Of a stretch of DNA of 39,464 nt, positions 67-34,914 are shown one piece after another (position 1 is the stretch's first letter; each line of letters begins with the position of its first letter). The notes beneath the pieces are model-generated. The model was given only the letters and a program-made list of their open reading frames with translations. It did no database searches and had not been told where the DNA came from. The stretch spans positions 1-39,464 of the forward strand of contig JANOSY010000007.1 of NCBI GenBank assembly GCA_031416075.1. The letters run 5' to 3'. The position numbers were made by a program, and so were the translations under genes. This stretch comes from Candidatus Tenderia sp. (GTDB taxonomy: Bacteria; Pseudomonadota; Gammaproteobacteria; Tenderiales; Tenderiaceae).

Positions 67-108
67 AGTCAGCGCACCAGAAAATAAGGAAGGAGTAGCG
101 CTATTATA
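1..108 (-). mobile_element. Left end of a probable IS630-family insertion sequence (runs off the window)
   Basis: Minus-strand ATG at 66 reads MPVPVAISLTEEERQEFHRCCR, resembling IS630 transposase N-termini (I-x-LT-x-EER). The upstream end lies in a TATATA run, and IS630 targets TA. The exact boundary is uncertain. Confidence 0.55.
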
Positions 109-131
109 TATGATCATACTATTTGTTACAG
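109..131 (-). other. Possible left part (R'' box) of an attC site, interrupted by the IS
   Basis: The cassette ORF stop is embedded in CTGTAAC followed by AAAT (minus strand), a common attC arrangement. The match to RYYYAAC is imperfect and the other arm is not visible. Confidence 0.35.
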
Positions 132-389
132 TACACTAGTAAAGCTAATATCACCTTCTACTCTTTTTCTTGTTCCAACAATTGAGTCACTTATACATTG
201 TGATTTTATATAGCTTTCCATTCGTTCTTGACGTTTTTCAGCCATGTCTTGAGAATAATTCAATGTGTTTCTATCTCTCTTTAACTTATTGTCTGCTTCC
301 ACTTGCTTAGCTGCTCCTTCCCAAATGGAACAACTGGCAAGGCATGCTGCTGACCCAATTAAGGAAATTGTTAATACTTTTTTTATCAT
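126..389 (-). CDS. Small hypothetical lipoprotein; putative integron gene cassette
   Basis: 87 aa; MIKK + hydrophobic stretch + lipobox LASC; AT-rich; AGGGAG upstream; begins ~55 bp after a GTTAGAT core site. Confidence 0.7.
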   Translation of the reverse strand: MIKKVLTISLIGSAACLASCSIWEGAAKQVEADNKLKRDRNTLNYSQDMAEKRQERMESYIKSQCISDSIVGTRKRVEGDISFTSVL

Positions 390-443
390 GGAATTTTTTA
401 TCTCCCTTCACTTAACCTAAATTATATTTGAATTCTGTTTACC

Positions 444-465
444 ATCTAACGTGTATTAGACAGAA
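444..465 (-). other. Putative integron attI simple site
   Basis: Minus strand TTCTGTCTAAT-ACAC-GTTAGAT: GTTRRRY core (450-444) preceded by an inverted L-like box, between the integrase remnant and the cassette ORF. Confidence 0.55.
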
Positions 466-476
466 ATATTAAAAAG

Positions 477-503
477 TGTGCTAGACAGAATCTGTCTAGC
501 ACA
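477..503. repeat. Perfect 13-bp inverted repeat
   Basis: TGTGCTAGACAGA-A-TCTGTCTAGCACA; TAGACAGAA also occurs at 457-465. Confidence 0.9.
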
Positions 504-585
504 TCTACTAATGTCGTTTTGATACTATTCCCATAGGCAACGTTTGGCGTTGTGGTTTTACACCATTTTTTGTCAGTGCTGGAAT

Positions 586-896
586 ATGGATATCCGCGCA
601 TCAAAAGAAACAGTTCCTGCCAGTTGGTTTTGGGATCGTTATATGAATTCCACTGATAAACAAGGGATTAAATCTCCGGCTGATCGTTGGTATGTGCGCC
701 GTTCGAAATATAGCACCACATTCCTAAATAAGAAACTTGTTGTTTATGCTTCAAATGAAGCGACTGATTGCTTTATAAATAAAGGTATAAATACCTCGAT
801 TCAAACGTGGAAACTTGAGTGCCTTGTTGATGCTATACAGAATTTATTTAGGATGGTGGGGTTGTCTGGGTTGATCAGCTGAACTGGATTTTTTAA
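586..896 (+). pseudogene. intI: Truncated, frameshifted N-terminal extension of a long-type integron integrase
   Basis: FWDRY..DKQGIK..A.RWYVRR...W...LVDAIQNLF, then WVDQLNW in a shifted frame (867-887). This resembles the N-terminal SAM-like region of long integron integrases as I recall them. No catalytic domain follows. Confidence 0.6.
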
Positions 897-919
897 AGTT
901 GTGATGTAATCTGATGGGC

Positions 920-950
920 AATAAAAAAGGGAGCATAGCTCCCTTTTATT
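920..950. terminator. Bidirectional Rho-independent terminator downstream of slyD
   Basis: AATAAAAAAGGGAGC-ATA-GCTCCCTTTTATT. Confidence 0.85.
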
Positions 951-972
951 ACTCGCTATTTAATATAGTGAG

Positions 973-1560: not shown

Positions 1561-1983
1561 ATGGATGTGTATTTGATGTAGGCACCTGTTGTTGAGATTG
1601 CGGCAGTGGTGGTGCACTACGGCGCGGTATTGCTTGTGAAGTGGGTGTGTAGTGCGGGGGGGATCTGTTGGTCTCTGCCGTTGGGGGTGTTGCCGTGGGG
1701 TGGGTGTTTGCAGCGGTGTGTTGAGCGTGAGGTGCTGGCGGCGACGGGGGTTGTTATCCGTTCCGGGGCGGTGCTTCGCGGTTATGACCGGATGGTATCA
1801 GCGGCGGATGGGGCAGTAACGGAACATTCGGTTGTGATTGAGATGGAGGCAGATTATCTTGGCGGGGAGTTACAGCCGGGGGCTGCGGTATTGGACGCGG
1901 CGTGGGTTAGTGCGCTGGCCATTGCTACGCTTGATGTTGATGAGAAGTGCCTGGAGTTGTTGGTTGATATTGGGTTTATATAA
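1561..1983 (+). pseudogene. Degenerate Nudix hydrolase (ADP-ribose pyrophosphatase-like)
   Basis: ATG at 1561, in-frame TAG at 1579, then PVVEIAAVVVH.GAVLLVK. The Nudix box is decayed (EREVLAATGV instead of REx2EExG). The C-terminus YLGGELQPG..LDAAWVS is typical of the family. Confidence 0.7.
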
Positions 1984-4290: not shown

Positions 4291-6087
4291 TTAGCTGTTA
4301 TCAGTGGCCCTGTTTCTATCGATATACACAACCAGCTGTTGGCCCGGCTGAATGAACTGGCCGCGTACTTTAGGGTTCCACTCTTTGAGGTTGTTGATGG
4401 TGACGTTGAATTTTTGTGAGATTCGCGCCAGTGAGTCACCATTGCGGACGCGGTAGCTGACCTTTTTGGTGGTGCTGCCGTTTTTACTGAGCTTGGTGCT
4501 GCCCTGTGTCCCTTCCTTCCAGATCACCAGCTTTTGGCCCTTGCGGAGGGTGTCGCGGCTCTTCATTTTGTTCCAGCTGGCCAGGTTGCTGACGCTGATT
4601 TTATGTTTAGAGGAGATTTCGGAGAGTGTGTCGCCACCACGTACGGTGTAGACCACCTTCTGTTTCTCCTGGCTCTTGTTCTGTCGGCTCTCCAAACGGT
4701 GGTTGGCCGTGAGCAGATACTCCTGTGAAGCACGGCTGGAGGTCGGAATGGTCAGTGTTTCACCGGCGTGTACAGCGCTGCCATCCAGCTTGTTGGCACG
4801 CTGAATGGCGGCGACACTGACATTATATTTTTTGGCAATGGCACCCAGATTGTCGCCTGGCTGGATCTGATACTGTGCCCACGCCATCCGCTGCGAAGGG
4901 GTGAGTTCCGCCAGTTTATCTTCAAAGGCGTCGGCTTTTTCCAGTGGTAACAGGAGTGTATGGGGGCCGTTGGGGGCGGTGGCCCAGCGGTTAAAGCCAG
5001 GGTTGAAGGTGTACAACTCCTGTAGTTCAAGCTCGGCCATGTCGGCGGCAATAGCCAGATCGAGCTGCGCGCCGATGTTGACCTGCTTGAGCAGGGGTTT
5101 GTTGGGAATGGTGCGTAGGGTGATGCCAAACTTTTCCGGGTCGGCAACCACATTGGCGATGGCCAGCAGGCGTGGTACGTAGTTGCGGGTCTCCCGTGGC
5201 AGATCCAGGTCCCAAAAGGTGGTGCCAAGTCCACGGTTCTGGTTGGCAATGATGGCGCGTCCCACCGTACCTTCGCCTGAGTTATAGGCGGCCAGGGCCA
5301 GCAGCCAATCACCATTGAACTGGTTGTGCAGCTTCTGCAGGTAGGTGAGGGCGGCGTGGGTAGAGGCGTGAATGTCACGGCGACCGTCATACCACCAGTT
5401 GATTTTCAGTCCATAGTTGGTAGCGGTACCGGGGATAAATTGCCAGATGCCAGCGGCGTGGCTGCGGGAGTAGGCAAAGGGTTGAAAGGCGCTTTCAACC
5501 ACGGGTAACAGGGCAATCTCCAAGGGCATCTGCCGTGCCTCGACCTCTTCGATAATGTAGTGCATATAGGGGGCGGCACGGGTAAAGGTGCGGTCGAGGT
5601 AAACCTGGTGGTTGGCAAACCACTCGCGGCTGGGTTGTACGTTGGGGTGGTCGCTGTCTGGCAGACTAAAACCGGCCCGAACCCGTGGCCAGATATCGTC
5701 ATTCTGGCCGTTAAGACTGTTTTTGTTGAGCAGTCGCTGAGAGGCGTTTAACACCGCCTGACCCACTTCACCCTCATCTTCAGCGGTTGGATCTTCGACG
5801 GCGTTGTCAGGATCGTCATCAGGTATATTTTCGTCGTCGCTGAGTGCCACATCCTCGCTGGGTGGCAGCGGTGCGCGGCGTTTGTTACCCGCTGTTGTTT
5901 GTGTTGCATTGCCGGTGCCGCTCACAGAGGTGTGTGCACCTGCGGTGGTAACAGGTTTTAACGTGTTGGTTGGGCCTGCACAGCCAGCGATGAGCACGGT
6001 TAACGTGACGCCAAAACAGCTGTTGACGATGGCTTGTTTCATTTTCCCCATGGAATTCGTAACCTTAAAATTGTCATTTTGTGGCAA
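4291..6087 (-). CDS. mltD: Membrane-bound lytic murein transglycosylase D (SLT + 3 LysM); true start probably ~6051
   Basis: Lipobox IAGC, LPVVESAF, AAGIWQF, ALAAYNSGEG, ETRNYVP, three LysM repeats; next to gloB. Confidence 0.92.
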   Translation of the reverse strand: MPQNDNFKVTNSMGKMKQAIVNSCFGVTLTVLIAGCAGPTNTLKPVTTAGAHTSVSGTGNATQTTAGNKRRAPLPPSEDVALSDDENIPDDDPDNAVEDPTAEDEGEVGQAVLNASQRLLNKNSLNGQNDDIWPRVRAGFSLPDSDHPNVQPSREWFANHQVYLDRTFTRAAPYMHYIIEEVEARQMPLEIALLPVVESAFQPFAYSRSHAAGIWQFIPGTATNYGLKINWWYDGRRDIHASTHAALTYLQKLHNQFNGDWLLALAAYNSGEGTVGRAIIANQNRGLGTTFWDLDLPRETRNYVPRLLAIANVVADPEKFGITLRTIPNKPLLKQVNIGAQLDLAIAADMAELELQELYTFNPGFNRWATAPNGPHTLLLPLEKADAFEDKLAELTPSQRMAWAQYQIQPGDNLGAIAKKYNVSVAAIQRANKLDGSAVHAGETLTIPTSSRASQEYLLTANHRLESRQNKSQEKQKVVYTVRGGDTLSEISSKHKISVSNLASWNKMKSRDTLRKGQKLVIWKEGTQGSTKLSKNGSTTKKVSYRVRNGDSLARISQKFNVTINNLKEWNPKVRGQFIQPGQQLVVYIDRNRATDNS

Positions 6088-6115
6088 AAGTATATCCCGG
6101 CACCGGCTAAATCAG

Positions 6116-6889
6116 CTAATCGAGTGTGTCTTTCCAGTAGCGCAGTGTTTTGAATACCGCCGCCTCTGTCTGTAACGGATGGCCAGCAAATTGCTCTACA
6201 CCTGCTTTGATGGTTGCTTCATTACAGCGCAAAAAGGGGTTGGTTTGCAGTTCCAGGGCCAGGGTGGTGGGCACGGTGGCCACGCCGCGCTGCCGCTTGG
6301 CTGTCTCAATTAGCTGCCGTTCGAGTATCTGCGGGTTGTTTGGTTCCGCTATCCGGGCAAAAATCAGGTTTGATAGGGTATACTCGTGTGCGCAGTAGAG
6401 TTGTGTATTGATGGGTAACTTTTTGATTTTGCTTAAAGATTCATGGAGTTGTTCGGCCGTTCCACCGAGTAATCGGCCACAGCCTGCGGCAAATAGCGTA
6501 TCACCACAAAAGAGGCTGTTTTCGCCGTAATAGGCGACATGGCTCTGGGTATGGCCGGGAACCTCAAGGACGGTCAGTGTCAGAGGGTCTAGACCCAGGG
6601 TGATGATGTCACCGTCAATGACCGGATGGGTGACCTGAGGGATCTGCGGGGTGTCGGGACCGTAGACAGGGACACCAGGGTAGTGGTGACGTAAGGTCTC
6701 TATGCCATCAATATGGTCATGGTGGTGGTGGGTAATGAGGATGGCGGTAAGTGTCAGCCCCTGTTGTTTGAGTGCTGCCATAACGGGGCGGGCATCACCG
6801 GGATCGATCACGGCGGCCTGTTTCCCTTCCAGCAGGATCAGCCAGATATAATTGTCGGAGAATGCAGGGAGCGTTTGGATGTTTATCAT
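6116..6889 (-). CDS. gloB: Hydroxyacylglutathione hydrolase (glyoxalase II)
   Basis: THHHHDH, PGHT, FCGDTLF, CAHEYT, NPFLR. Confidence 0.95.
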   Translation of the reverse strand: MINIQTLPAFSDNYIWLILLEGKQAAVIDPGDARPVMAALKQQGLTLTAILITHHHHDHIDGIETLRHHYPGVPVYGPDTPQIPQVTHPVIDGDIITLGLDPLTLTVLEVPGHTQSHVAYYGENSLFCGDTLFAAGCGRLLGGTAEQLHESLSKIKKLPINTQLYCAHEYTLSNLIFARIAEPNNPQILERQLIETAKRQRGVATVPTTLALELQTNPFLRCNEATIKAGVEQFAGHPLQTEAAVFKTLRYWKDTLD

Positions 6890-6948
6890 TGTCTTGAATG
6901 TCATGCTGGCAGAGGCGTTGCATGGTAACGCGAAATGGGGGGTGTTGC

Positions 6949-7722
6949 ATGATTGCCGGCCTTAAGCGCCAACAGATCAATAAAATTCGTCAGGCGTTAC
7001 GCCTCTGGTATGGCCGTCCGGTGGGTAAGTGGCTGTTGCAGCAGGAGCGTGAGCGGCTAAGTGAGGTATTGCCAACGCTGTTTGGTTACCACATCGTACA
7101 GATGGGGTCTCTGCTGGGGGATGAGCTGCTGACATCCAGCCGTATTCCACACCGTGTGTTGATTGATCCGGACAGAGGCTGTGGCGTCTCTCCGTTAGGG
7201 CTCTATGCCTATCCTGACGCCATCCCCATCGCGGCTGATAGTGTGGATGTGGTTGTGCTGCACCATACCCTGGAGTTCGAGCGTGACCCACACCAGATCC
7301 TGCGTGAGGTGGACCGCATTTTGATCCCTGAAGGACATGTGGTGATACTGGGTTTTAACCCCTGGAGTCTCTGGGGGCTTTGGCGTCTAGCCCGTGGCCG
7401 GAAGGGGGATACCCCCTGGTGCGGTGACTTTCTCAGCCCCTCGCGTGTTAAGGATTGGATGGCGCTGCTGGGGTTTGATGTGGCGGAGGTTAAACACCAC
7501 TTTTTTCGGCCACCACTGAAAAATCGCCTGCTGATGCGCAGACTTAGATTTATGGAGCGGCTGGGGCAGCGGTTCTGGCCAGGCCTTTCAGGAGCCTACC
7601 TGTTGGTGGCGCAGAAGCGAGTCACCACGGTGACACCTATTAAACCGCGCTGGCAGCCACGGCGGCGACTGCTGGGTGAGCTGGCGCGCCCAACTACACG
7701 GAGTACACAGTGTCGGAAATAG
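6949..7722 (+). CDS. SAM-dependent methyltransferase (YafS-like)
   Basis: [37 protein letters not shown]; conserved gloB-yafS-rnhA context. Confidence 0.88.
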
Positions 7723-8192
7723 TGGAAATTTTTACGGATGGTGCCTGTCGTGGCAACCCTGGCCCCGGTGGCTGGGGGGTGGTCTTGCGGAGCAAAGGCA
7801 AGGTCAAGACACTGCACGGTGGCGAGGCCGATACCACCAATAACCGTATGGAAATGATGGCGGCGATCCAGGGGTTGGAGTCATTGACCCGACCCTGTCA
7901 GGTCACACTGACCACCGACTCCAAGTATGTGATGCAGGGCATTACCGACTGGATTAAGGGCTGGAAGAAAAATGGCTGGAAAAACTCAGCCCGGCAGCCG
8001 GTTAAAAATGTTGATCTGTGGCAGCGGCTGGATCTGGCCCGTTTGCGCCACGAGGTGCAGTGGTGCTGGGTGAAAGGCCACAGTGGCCACCCCGAAAATG
8101 AGCAGGCTGACCAGCTCGCCAACCTTGGCATCGATGAGCTGCAGTTAAATAAAAAGAGTGGAGGAGTTGCCAGTGCGGCAGATAATTCTTGA
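7710..8192 (+). CDS. rnhA: Ribonuclease HI
   Basis: [39 protein letters not shown]. Confidence 0.97.
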
Positions 8193-8901
8193 TACCGAAA
8201 CAACCGGTCTGGAGACCCGTGAGGGGCACCGGATTATTGAGATCGGTTGTGTTGAGCTGCTCAACCGCCGCCTGACGGGCAACCACTACCACCAATATCT
8301 ACAGCCTGAGCGTTCCAGTGATGAGAGTGCCATTGAGGTGCATGGCATCACCGATGAGTTTCTGCTCGACAAACCGCTGTTTGCCACCGTTGCCGCCGAG
8401 TTTATGGCGTTCATCAAAGGTGCTGAGTTGATCATCCATAACGCCCCGTTTGATATCGGGTTTATCAATTACGAGCTCTCACTGCTGGGGCCGGAGTGGG
8501 GTTCGGTACTCGACCACTGCACTGTGCTTGATACCTTGGATATGGCGCGCCGGATGCATCCCGGCCAGCGCAACAGTCTGGATGCGCTTTGCAAACGTTA
8601 TGACATCGATAACTCCAGCCGCACCCTGCACGGTGCGCTGCTTGACTCTGAAATCCTAGCGGACGTCTACCTTGCCATGACCGGCGGCCAGACCCTGTTG
8701 CTGCTGGATGCAGAGCAGGGTGGAGTGGGCAATCAGCAGGAGATTGTGCGGCCGCTGAGCCATGAACGGCCACCACTACGGGTCATCAGCGCAACGGCTG
8801 ATGAACTCGCCAGCCATGAGGAGTATCTGAATCTGGTGGATAAAAGCGCAGGTGAGCAGCAGTCGCTGTGGCGTGCGCTGGATAGCCAACAGTTGCAATA
8901 G
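8173..8901 (+). CDS. dnaQ: DNA polymerase III epsilon subunit
   Basis: LDTETTG, HNAPFD, HGALLD; GTG start with GGAGG RBS. Confidence 0.97.
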
Positions 8902-33588: not shown

Positions 33589-34914
33589 ATCCAGACTCTT
33601 GCAGATCTTCAGGCCGGTCGACTGGCGGGCGCACAGCGGGTAAACATTGCCGAAGGGTTAACCGTGTTTCCACAACAGCTGTTGGCGTTGGCGGAGACGC
33701 TGGAGTATCTCGACCTGTCGGACAACTGTTTAAGCGAGCTGCCAGACAATTTTGCACAGCTTAAAAAGCTGCGGATTCTGTTTTTATCCAACAACCACTT
33801 CCACCGTTTTCCCACCGTGCTCGCACAATGCCCGGAGTTGACCATGGTGGGTTTTAAGGCCAACCAGATTGCTGAGCTGCCCGACGGCGCGCTGCCCGCC
33901 AAGATTCGCTGGCTGATTTTGACCGATAACCGGCTTGAAGCGCTGCCCCGTTCAATTGGCAACCATCGCCATTTGCAAAAAGTGATGTTGGCGGGCAACC
34001 AGCTGACAGCGCTGCCCGATGAGATGGCACACTGCGTCAACATCGAACTGCTACGGATCTCCGCCAACCGGCTGGTCACCTTGCCAGCGTGGCTGGTTAA
34101 ACTGCCCAAACTATCCTGGTTGGCGTTTGCTGGTAACCCCTGTAGCCAGCACCCTGAGGCCACGTCAGATTTACCCGAGGTCCATTGGCAAACGCTGCAA
34201 CTGGGACAGCCGCTGGGGCAGGGGGCATCGGGGGTGATCAGCCAGGCGCGCTGGAACGGCAGCAGTGATGTGGCGGTTAAACTGTTCAAAGGCAGCATCA
34301 CCAGCGACGGTCTGCCCGAGCATGAGATGGCAGCAGCCCTGGCCGCCGGGCAACATACCCATCTGGTGACACTGCTGGGTAAGCTAGTAGGCCATCCGGA
34401 ACAGAAGTGCGGGTTGCTGCTAGCGCTGCTGGATCAGGCATTTAAAAATCTGGCGGCCCCACCCAGTCTGGAAAGTTGTACCCGTGATACCTACGCAGCA
34501 GAGGCAACCTTCAGCCTCGTTGCACTGCTCAACATCACCCGCAGTATTGCCGCAGTGGCCAACCATCTACACGGGCGCGGCATCATGCACGGCGATCTGT
34601 ATGGCCATAACATCCTGGTCAATCAGGCTACTGATACTCTGTTGGGGGATTTTGGCGCAGCCACTATATATAAAGGTATGGCCGACGTAGCCGCCTGTTC
34701 GGAGGCGCTGGAGCGGTTGGAGGTCCGGGCGTTTGGCTGTCTGCTGGAAGAGCTGTTGGCGCGGCTGGATCGGGACGACCGGGCCTGTCATCCCACACCC
34801 ATCCAGCAGCTCAGCCACCTGCAACAGCGCTGTGTGGATACGGTGGTAGAACAGCGCCCCGACTTTGCCAACATTGTGGCGCAGCTGGAGCGGGTGAGTG
34901 TGATAGATCGTTGA
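33589..34914 (+). CDS. Leucine-rich repeat-containing Ser/Thr protein kinase
   Basis: LRRs (LDLSDN.L..LP, LILTDN.L, MLAGN.L), GQGASG, VAVK, HGDLYGHN, DFG; frame open upstream of GTG 33664 to 33577. Confidence 0.9.
   Translation: MQTLADLQAGRLAGAQRVNIAEGLTVFPQQLLALAETLEYLDLSDNCLSELPDNFAQLKKLRILFLSNNHFHRFPTVLAQCPELTMVGFKANQIAELPDGALPAKIRWLILTDNRLEALPRSIGNHRHLQKVMLAGNQLTALPDEMAHCVNIELLRISANRLVTLPAWLVKLPKLSWLAFAGNPCSQHPEATSDLPEVHWQTLQLGQPLGQGASGVISQARWNGSSDVAVKLFKGSITSDGLPEHEMAAALAAGQHTHLVTLLGKLVGHPEQKCGLLLALLDQAFKNLAAPPSLESCTRDTYAAEATFSLVALLNITRSIAAVANHLHGRGIMHGDLYGHNILVNQATDTLLGDFGAATIYKGMADVAACSEALERLEVRAFGCLLEELLARLDRDDRACHPTPIQQLSHLQQRCVDTVVEQRPDFANIVAQLERVSVIDR

Follow-up and report, generated by a model that had tools for sequence, protein, structure and literature searches.

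A decayed chromosomal integron with the stump of an N-terminally extended integrase gene beside slyD in Candidatus Tenderia

At the left end of a 39,464-nucleotide stretch of DNA from Candidatus Tenderia sp. (contig JANOSY010000007.1 of assembly GCA_031416075.1, positions 1–39,464 of the forward strand; hereafter the window), an AT-rich island next to the slyD gene holds two small open reading frames (ORFs). We report here that this locus is a decayed chromosomal integron of the type that encodes longer integrases, both decayed intI genes and longer integrases being already known from earlier work (Nemergut et al. 2008; PMC2426708). Positions 100–960 very probably represent a sedentary chromosomal integron whose platform has been inactivated, with a lipoprotein gene as the most likely first cassette. 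An integron had been proposed here in an original prediction made from the letters of the sequence, and all the features on which that proposal was built (the AT-rich block, a series of integrase-like peptides, a GTTAGAT core, a lipoprotein ORF and a TAAC at the stop codon of the latter) are present in the places given for them. Coordinates are collected in Table 1.

The first line of evidence comes from the + strand ORF, which is open over 544/586–882 and contains the peptides FWDRY, RWYVRR and VDAIQNLF. The ORF itself finds no match of use in Pfam, NCBIfam or the sequences of the PDB; the best direct matches in library searches, to herpesvirus gB and RecX, were at chance level and were dropped. 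A phmmer search performed without a word index against 1.84 billion representative proteins identified 87 relatives at E ≤ 1e-3, and in 86 of these the best-scoring match falls within the first ~150 residues of the matched protein. Pfam was run on 23 of the 87: Phage_int_SAM_4 was found in 15, at ~144–238 and thus after the part matched by the stump, and Phage_integrase in eight (seven of the 15 SAM_4 carriers plus protein P0017), with three of these eight below cutoff, and five proteins had no family at all. In P0017, the stump-matching part is itself recognised as SAM_4 (30.2 bits, cutoff 27). Ten relatives were compared with NCBIfam and nine of these matched TIGR02249, 'integron integrase'; the 265-bit cutoff of this model was passed by three of the ten (457.8, 443.1 and 272.2 bits), the others being fragments.

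The nearest intact protein found, P0088, is 463 amino acids long, scores 483.9 bits against TIGR02249 and shares 57% identity with the stump over residues 1–93. TIGR02249 scores of 443–484 bits are seen for P0088, P0060, P0065 and the intI product of a related locus, L001 (described below), and in each case the alignment with the stump starts at residue 1. As the stump and P0088 both begin with MDI, the start codon at 586 is confirmed. What marks out this N-terminally extended clade is a helical domain of ~95 amino acids, RFWD..RWYV.RAE..DWQF.Q.VDAIQ.LF, preceding the canonical SAM-like domain, and it is this domain that the window retains. The proposed remnant of an integrase with an N-terminal extension is therefore borne out: among the homologues of the stump, the intact integrases score above the cutoff of the integron-integrase model, and on the strength of this homology the + strand ORF is what remains of the 5′ part of an N-terminally extended integron integrase gene.

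Genome contigs were scanned with a peptide pattern drawn from the extra domain, yielding 31 loci, with the source genome of the window not included. These come from Desulfobacter, Desulfospira, Desulfuromonas and other Thermodesulfobacteriota, and from Methylococcales, Thiohalomonadaceae, Chromatiales and Tenderia; the nearest relatives of the window's stump are found in a Tenderia metagenome-assembled genome (MAG) and other Gammaproteobacteria. The best locus, L001, comes from this Candidatus Tenderia MAG and its intI, which runs off the end of the contig, scores 482.6 bits against TIGR02249. Across the 31 loci, the open intI frame is 443–503 codons long in 16 and shorter in 15. The shorter group takes in three genes that are frameshifted and otherwise complete (L009, L013 and L015) and stumps like that of the window (L010, L026/L027, L028 and L031). 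Canonical attC sites of 84–131 nt (xxxxAAC ... GTTxxxx), together with divergent cassette ORFs, are found at L002, L003, L006, L007, L009 and L013, and the longer-integrase relatives are, by their gene and site content, real integrons. The attC sites of relatives (n = 21) fall into two length classes that align badly with one another, and the covariance model made from them has six base pairs.

How much of intI survives in the window can be judged by comparison with L001. Using blastn, window positions 647–887 are 69% identical to the L001 intI over 245 nt (E 7.6e-21). Relative to the L001 frame, the window carries a 3-nt deletion near 706/707 and a 1-nt deletion near 856/857, and because of the latter the remaining similarity to intI lies in another frame. 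Here the peptide WVDQLNW (867–887) corresponds to the family motif W-x-x-x-x-D-W that follows the extra domain; what had been taken for a frameshifted continuation proves to be real intI sequence. DNA similarity stops at ~888–893, leaving the first 98 codons of intI plus ~25 nt in the shifted frame, and the terminator of slyD begins 34 nt further on. A tblastn search with full-length IntI over the whole window recovered residues 15–95 alone and no second IntI fragment. The 3′ four-fifths of intI have been removed, in an event that ended within ~34 nt of the slyD terminator, much as the original prediction had supposed. The canonical SAM-like and catalytic domains are absent from the stump, and the tyrosine recombinase of a functional platform, with its IntI-specific additional domain and catalytic residues, is thus not encoded here. 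Even what is left has changed: the stump deviates at three of the 11 nearly invariant positions of the family (E41 is deleted, Q77 is replaced by K and Q80 by C), all three of which are retained in L001. A 98-amino acid protein, P0001, is 99% identical to the stump, the sole difference lying at the nearly invariant W16.

The second line of evidence is the attI site. Next to the 5′ end of intI, at 449–443 on the cassette (−) strand, lies the core GTTAGAT, which fits the GTTRRRY consensus. On the intI side of the core are three boxes with the pattern TAGRCAGAW, two of which (482–490 on the + strand and 498–490 on the − strand) make up a perfect 12+3+12 palindrome at 477–503; a third half-copy of the palindrome is present at 452–464. 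Of 27 relatives, 22 have a conserved block within 300 nt upstream of intI, with the order AAC, AGTG, a TAGRCAGAW box, a fixed gap and then a palindromic pair of the same box. An nhmmer profile was built from the upstream regions of 19 relatives, leaving the window out, and this matches the window at 446–502 with an E-value of 3.8e-9; the other significant match is the palindrome read in reverse, and the next has an E-value of 1.3. The distance from core to ATG is 138 nt in the window and 116–152 nt in 20 of the 22 relatives, and the spacing of the boxes (25 + 8 nt) is identical in L002, L003, L005, L006, L007, L011 and L017. In the window as a whole, the box pattern occurs four times against 0.77 expected, with three of the four at attI. 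Given the 87 relatives of the stump and this profile match, the motifs picked out in the original prediction lie well beyond chance.

Comparison of related loci locates the crossover point. In seven of nine pairs (L009/L013, L024/L025, L002/L003, L005/L007, L006/L007, L011/L031 and L010/L016), 50–60 of 60 positions are identical on the intI side of AAC, and beyond AAC identity drops to 13–24 of 60; the two further pairs, both with L026, share 39 of 60 positions ungapped on the intI side. This break in identity is the pattern expected where different cassettes have been inserted, and AAC therefore marks the point of crossover. GTTAGAT sits at this same position in the window, accompanied by the accessory boxes, as an attI core should, and from its resemblance to the sites of relatives the block can be identified as the attI of the longer-integrase family with its layout intact. 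Two other readings of the palindrome were considered and rejected. The conservation of its boxes as attI in relatives speaks against both a terminator and a LexA box, and the LexA consensus (CTGT-N8-ACAG) does not fit; the profile match and the box spacing shared with relatives make the palindrome part of attI rather than a terminator or an operator unconnected with it.

Two further short sequences were seen close to attI. On the cassette side of the core, GAATTCTGTTTACC at 430–441 resembles an inverted box (TCTGT.TA) and pairs weakly with 479–491, a likeness that may be due to chance. On the other side, TTTTACAC is found ~25–45 nt before the start of intI both in the window (555–562) and in the Desulfobacter and Desulfospira loci (L002–L007), and it may represent a promoter or operator element common to them.

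Among the relatives, too, several features of attI and its surroundings deserve mention. In L010, L026, L027, L028 and L031 (and also in L004, L016 and L023) the N-terminal-domain part of intI and the attI block alone have been retained; such recurring 5′ stumps could reflect either selection for the 5′ region or a bias arising from searching with the same domain. L009 and L013 are two contigs of one Methylococcales MAG and have the same doubly frameshifted intI and attI regions alike at 59 of 60 positions, together with different first cassettes and separate attC arrays. The MAG contigs that carry L004, L012, L018, L019, L020, L029 and L030 stop 150–330 nt ahead of the start of intI, level with attI or slightly beyond it, which is to be expected if assemblies break at cassette arrays. 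Finally, repeats of at least 300 nt, in two to three near-identical copies, are present inside the cassette array of L002 (1–6787) and represent either duplicated cassettes or an insertion sequence.

The domain that survives in the window is not one of the usual parts of an integron integrase. In the ~465-amino acid proteins, an extra core-binding-like helical domain is followed by the usual SAM-like domain and the catalytic domain. An AlphaFold2 model of the extra domain of the L002 protein, made from a 37-sequence alignment, is a four- to five-helix bundle with a predicted local distance difference test (pLDDT) value of 88.2. Searches with Foldseek matched this model to DNA-binding N-domains, namely those of XerA (5hxy), of an archaeal Xer (4a8e), of VchIntIA, the integron integrase of Vibrio (2a3v), and of Cre and lambda Int, with template modelling (TM) scores of 0.57–0.66, probabilities of 0.8–1.0 and weak E-values of 0.18–1. 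The top three (5hxy, 4a8e and 2a3v) have TM scores of 0.58–0.66, probabilities of 0.98–1.0 and E-values of 0.18–0.5. A profile comparison of the extra domain with the canonical SAM-like domain of the same family, using hhalign, gave a probability of 62% and an E-value of 7.7e-5. The core-binding (SAM-like) fold is thus predicted for the extra domain by way of the model of the L002 relative rather than of the decayed window copy. From these model matches and the profile comparison, the longer integrases seem to have a tandem pair of core-binding-like domains. Our literature searches turned up no account of what the extra domain does.

One clue to that role may lie within the coding sequence itself. 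The codons for (D/H)-A-I-Q-(N/I), which read [G/C]AT GCT ATA CAG A[A/T]T, show no synonymous variation in any of the 29 sequences compared (the window and 28 relatives), whereas nearby codons for conserved Q, F, V and L residues differ freely between sequences. The 28 loci were fetched using a peptide pattern spanning these residues and are not all independent of one another; that other codons under the same pattern vary argues against an artefact of fetching. The 14-mer ATGCTATACAGAAT (831–844) agrees at 12 of 14 positions with the context of an attI box, GTGCTAGACAGAAT (478–491), which suggests that 831–844 is a putative fourth binding site or else a promoter element within the gene. Lambda integrase has an arm-binding domain, and this offers a loose comparison for the extra domain. 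It is conceivable, though we consider it unlikely, that the extra domain serves specifically to recognise the TAGRCAGAW boxes (the three at attI and their box-like counterpart within intI) and that the stump may still act as a small DNA-binding protein that regulates the frozen cassette. If true, this would add an arm-site-like layer of synapse assembly, or of self-control, to integrons with extended IntI proteins.

On the far side of the attI core lies the lipoprotein-like ORF. Its strand and position are those of a first cassette, its start is 54 nt beyond the core 7-mer and its G+C content is 35%; the upstream arrays of relatives have 36–48% G+C, lower than their intI genes. The TAA stop codon, at 128–126, is followed by C and lies within TGTAACAAAT, which resembles the left end of the attC sites of relatives. 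Weak 'putative lipoprotein' leads (score 0.86) are all that the protein Atlas offers, and the ORF has no family in Pfam or NCBIfam. The picture that we favour is as follows. The components of the platform and their layout are those of integrons of its family, and an intI of the N-terminally extended type has lost all but its 5′ end, leaving a stump that abuts the slyD terminator. With the recombinase reduced to its extra N-terminal domain, the cassettes at the locus would be immobile and the array fixed: lacking a catalytic domain, nothing encoded here would insert or excise cassettes and the content behind attI would be frozen. The AT-rich lipoprotein gene behind the core would most likely be the first cassette and would probably owe its transcription, like the cassettes of other integrons, to a promoter within the attI/intI 5′ region, with its attC and any further cassettes lying to the left of the window.

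A number of results weigh against this picture and the greater part of them concern the cassette. Nothing in the 125 nt present between the lipoprotein stop and the edge of the window pairs with the TAAC, which makes this TAAC a weak candidate for the left end of an attC. The − strand at 131–48 folds no better than shuffled sequences (z −0.30) and 135–1 gives z +1.07, where attC sites of L013 and L009, folded as controls, gave z −5.65 and z −1.74. A scan of 1–1000 for paired AAC and GTT ends, in which the outer stem was forced, returned only candidates based on the attI palindrome (19 control attC sites gave −12.8 to −28.6 kcal/mol in the constrained fold). The lipoprotein ORF has no homologue among proteins of 47–153 amino acids (longer and shorter proteins were not searched), which leaves mobility of the cassette unsupported, and no match in the arrays of relatives. 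No sigma-70-like site was seen on the − strand in 1–1700 using a crude consensus scan for a cassette-strand promoter. On the other side of attI, the ORF of the stump is unbroken and keeps its start codon, and the 99%-identical P0001 exists, so that some retained function is possible. Last, the closest relative with DNA available, L001, has xerC, a DUF484 gene and dapF after intI rather than slyD.

The failure to find an attC lends some weight to the idea that the locus is an empty or cut-off remnant, made up of a pseudo-intI and attI with no array, in which the lipoprotein gene and the DNA to its left are unrelated AT-rich sequence acquired from elsewhere or the end of a mobile element. There is no attC in 1–131, the lipoprotein ORF is without relatives of 47–153 amino acids and unmatched in the arrays of relatives, and the left-edge frames match nothing recognisable: the frame followed to the edge has no Pfam match and no relative among proteins of 80–2000 amino acids, and the idea that it is the start of an IS630-type helix-turn-helix found no support. 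Against this, the lipoprotein ORF resembles the first cassettes of relatives in strand, distance and low G+C content, and the junction 7-mer fits GTTRRRY. Furthermore, only 446 nt separate the core from the edge of the window, and as the first cassette of L002 is ~930 nt long, there may well be an attC just beyond the edge. We regard the empty remnant as possible but doubtful, and of the proposal that the small lipoprotein ORF is the first cassette, the strand and position fit, and neither an attC (in the 125 nt after the ORF) nor a homologue (of 47–153 amino acids) was found. A different challenge comes from the stump, which might be a retained stand-alone core-binding-like protein with the TAGRCAGAW boxes as its binding sites and, perhaps, control of the promoter of the frozen cassette as its role. 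The reading frame of the stump runs uninterrupted over 98 codons from the start used throughout the family, a second source preserves it at 99% identity (P0001), the three attI boxes and the box-like element in the gene are all intact, similar N-terminal-domain-only remnants recur at L010, L026/L027, L028 and L031, and the extra domain is predicted to fold like the DNA-binding N-domains of recombinases. Yet three of the nearly invariant positions kept in L001 have been lost here, the one difference in P0001 falls on another of them, the ORF is followed by out-of-frame intI DNA as expected of a recent wreck, and the recurrence of stumps is biased by the use of the same domain to fetch the loci; all told, we think a retained protein improbable. 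The last alternative, that there is no integron and the two ORFs are chance or orphan frames in an AT-rich intergenic island, can appeal to the lack of Pfam or NCBIfam matches at meaningful scores for either ORF. It is barely credible and is already refuted by the 87 relatives of the stump (including proteins that pass the integron-integrase model), by the DNA-level similarity to the L001 intI and by the attI profile match with its identical box spacing.

Table 1 Features of the integron locus and its surroundings in the window
Feature	Position	Strand	Description
AT-rich island	100–960		35.9% G+C versus 55.5% for 961–39464; holds all integron parts
Left-edge sequence after lipoprotein ORF	1–125	−	No attC-like fold; all three frames open to edge
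Lipoprotein-like ORF	126–389	−	87 codons; signal peptide and L-A-S-C lipobox
attI	443–503	−	Core, three accessory boxes and palindrome
attI box TAGACAGAA	457–465 and 482–490	+	TAGRCAGAW pattern
attI box TAGACAGAT	498–490	−	TAGRCAGAW pattern
intI stump	586–882	+	98 codons; homologous to residues 1–95 of ~465-amino acid integron integrases
Box-like element in coding sequence	830–844	+	GAT GCT ATA CAG AAT
Frameshifted intI continuation	867–896	+	WVDQLNWIF then stop; unaltered translation in another frame
slyD two-way terminator hairpin	925–947		10+3+10, AAAAGGGAGC ata GCTCCCTTTT
slyD (FKBP-type peptidyl-prolyl isomerase)	973–1452	−	FKBP_C E 1.6e-11; PRK10737 151.5 bits (below its 174-bit cutoff)
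NUDIX-like ORF, weak	1606–1983		20.9 bits, just below cutoff

The chromosomal setting of the locus is otherwise unexceptional. Successive 200-nt segments within 101–900 have 31–42% G+C and those beyond 1000 have 55–68%; the AT-rich island extends to the left edge, and no second comparable island was seen within the window. It contains the two divergent ORFs with a spacer of 196 nt between them. The first gene of the G+C-rich core genome is slyD, which is convergent with the intI stump, and what follows in the window is likewise unremarkable core chromosome, with modBC, mltD, gloB, rnhA, dnaQ, pyrBC, ruvX and gshAB. Rfam and tRNA scans of the window gave no matches, and neither did blastn of 1–960 against a plasmid collection. 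At 4291–8901, the order of genes is mltD, gloB, a methyltransferase-sized ORF, rnhA and dnaQ, the same as in Escherichia coli, and the gene order of the window suggests a gammaproteobacterial chromosome. Elsewhere, 1400–2000 is strongly G- and T-rich (GC skew up to +0.56), covering the upstream region of slyD and the weak NUDIX-like ORF, and 33664–34914 encodes a leucine-rich-repeat protein for which NCBIfam offers solely Xop-type effector repeat families, far below cutoff; these matches probably reflect the repeats alone.

Decay of integrons is well documented. About one-third of intI genes are reported to be pseudogenes, with decay and loss common (PMC2426708), and in the pseudo-integrons of Nemergut et al. 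2008 (PMC2426708) chromosomal intI genes have likewise been disabled by frameshift and deletion. Compared with these, the window keeps roughly the first fifth of intI and a complete attI, and its array is not visible within the stretch analysed. Longer integrases have been described as well: those of clade 15, from Deltaproteobacteria including Geobacter, exceed others by ~120 amino acids as the result of a single gene fusion, and are probably functional (PMC2426708). The stump matches the N-terminal extra part of ~465-amino acid TIGR02249 proteins whose bearers include Desulfobacter, Desulfospira and Desulfuromonas, and by length and taxa alone we infer that the family represented in the window is clade 15. 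In contrast to the deltaproteobacterial members of that clade, the gene order here points to a gammaproteobacterium and the nearest relatives are the Tenderia MAG and Gammaproteobacteria. As to the attachment site, attI1 of class 1 integrons comprises a simple site plus two direct repeats, DR1 and DR2, that bind IntI1 (PMC3146285). The window resembles it in having a GTTRRRY core adjacent to the 5′ end of intI, flanked towards that gene by additional repeated boxes. Unlike those of attI1, the TAGRCAGAW boxes of the window, putative binding sites, comprise one direct copy and a palindromic pair with 25/8-nt spacing and are of unrelated sequence.

The annotation program IntegronFinder distinguishes three classes of element: complete integrons, In0 and CALIN. 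The platform in the window, without a detectable attC, resembles the In0 class. IntegronFinder would probably report nothing here, since the intI fragment lacks the domain that the program scores, and the expected absence of a call fits with an ORF track that shows hypothetical proteins alone.

Taken together, these results turn two 'hypothetical proteins' and an AT-rich island into an annotated dead integron platform, marking a past site of gene capture beside slyD. The conserved architecture of the boxes and the invariant codons within intI raise the question of what role the extra domain plays. More broadly, the domain motif, the attI block and the spacing of its boxes make up a usable signature for the little-studied longer integrases, one that could be used to annotate stumps elsewhere that are missed by searches for integrase domains.

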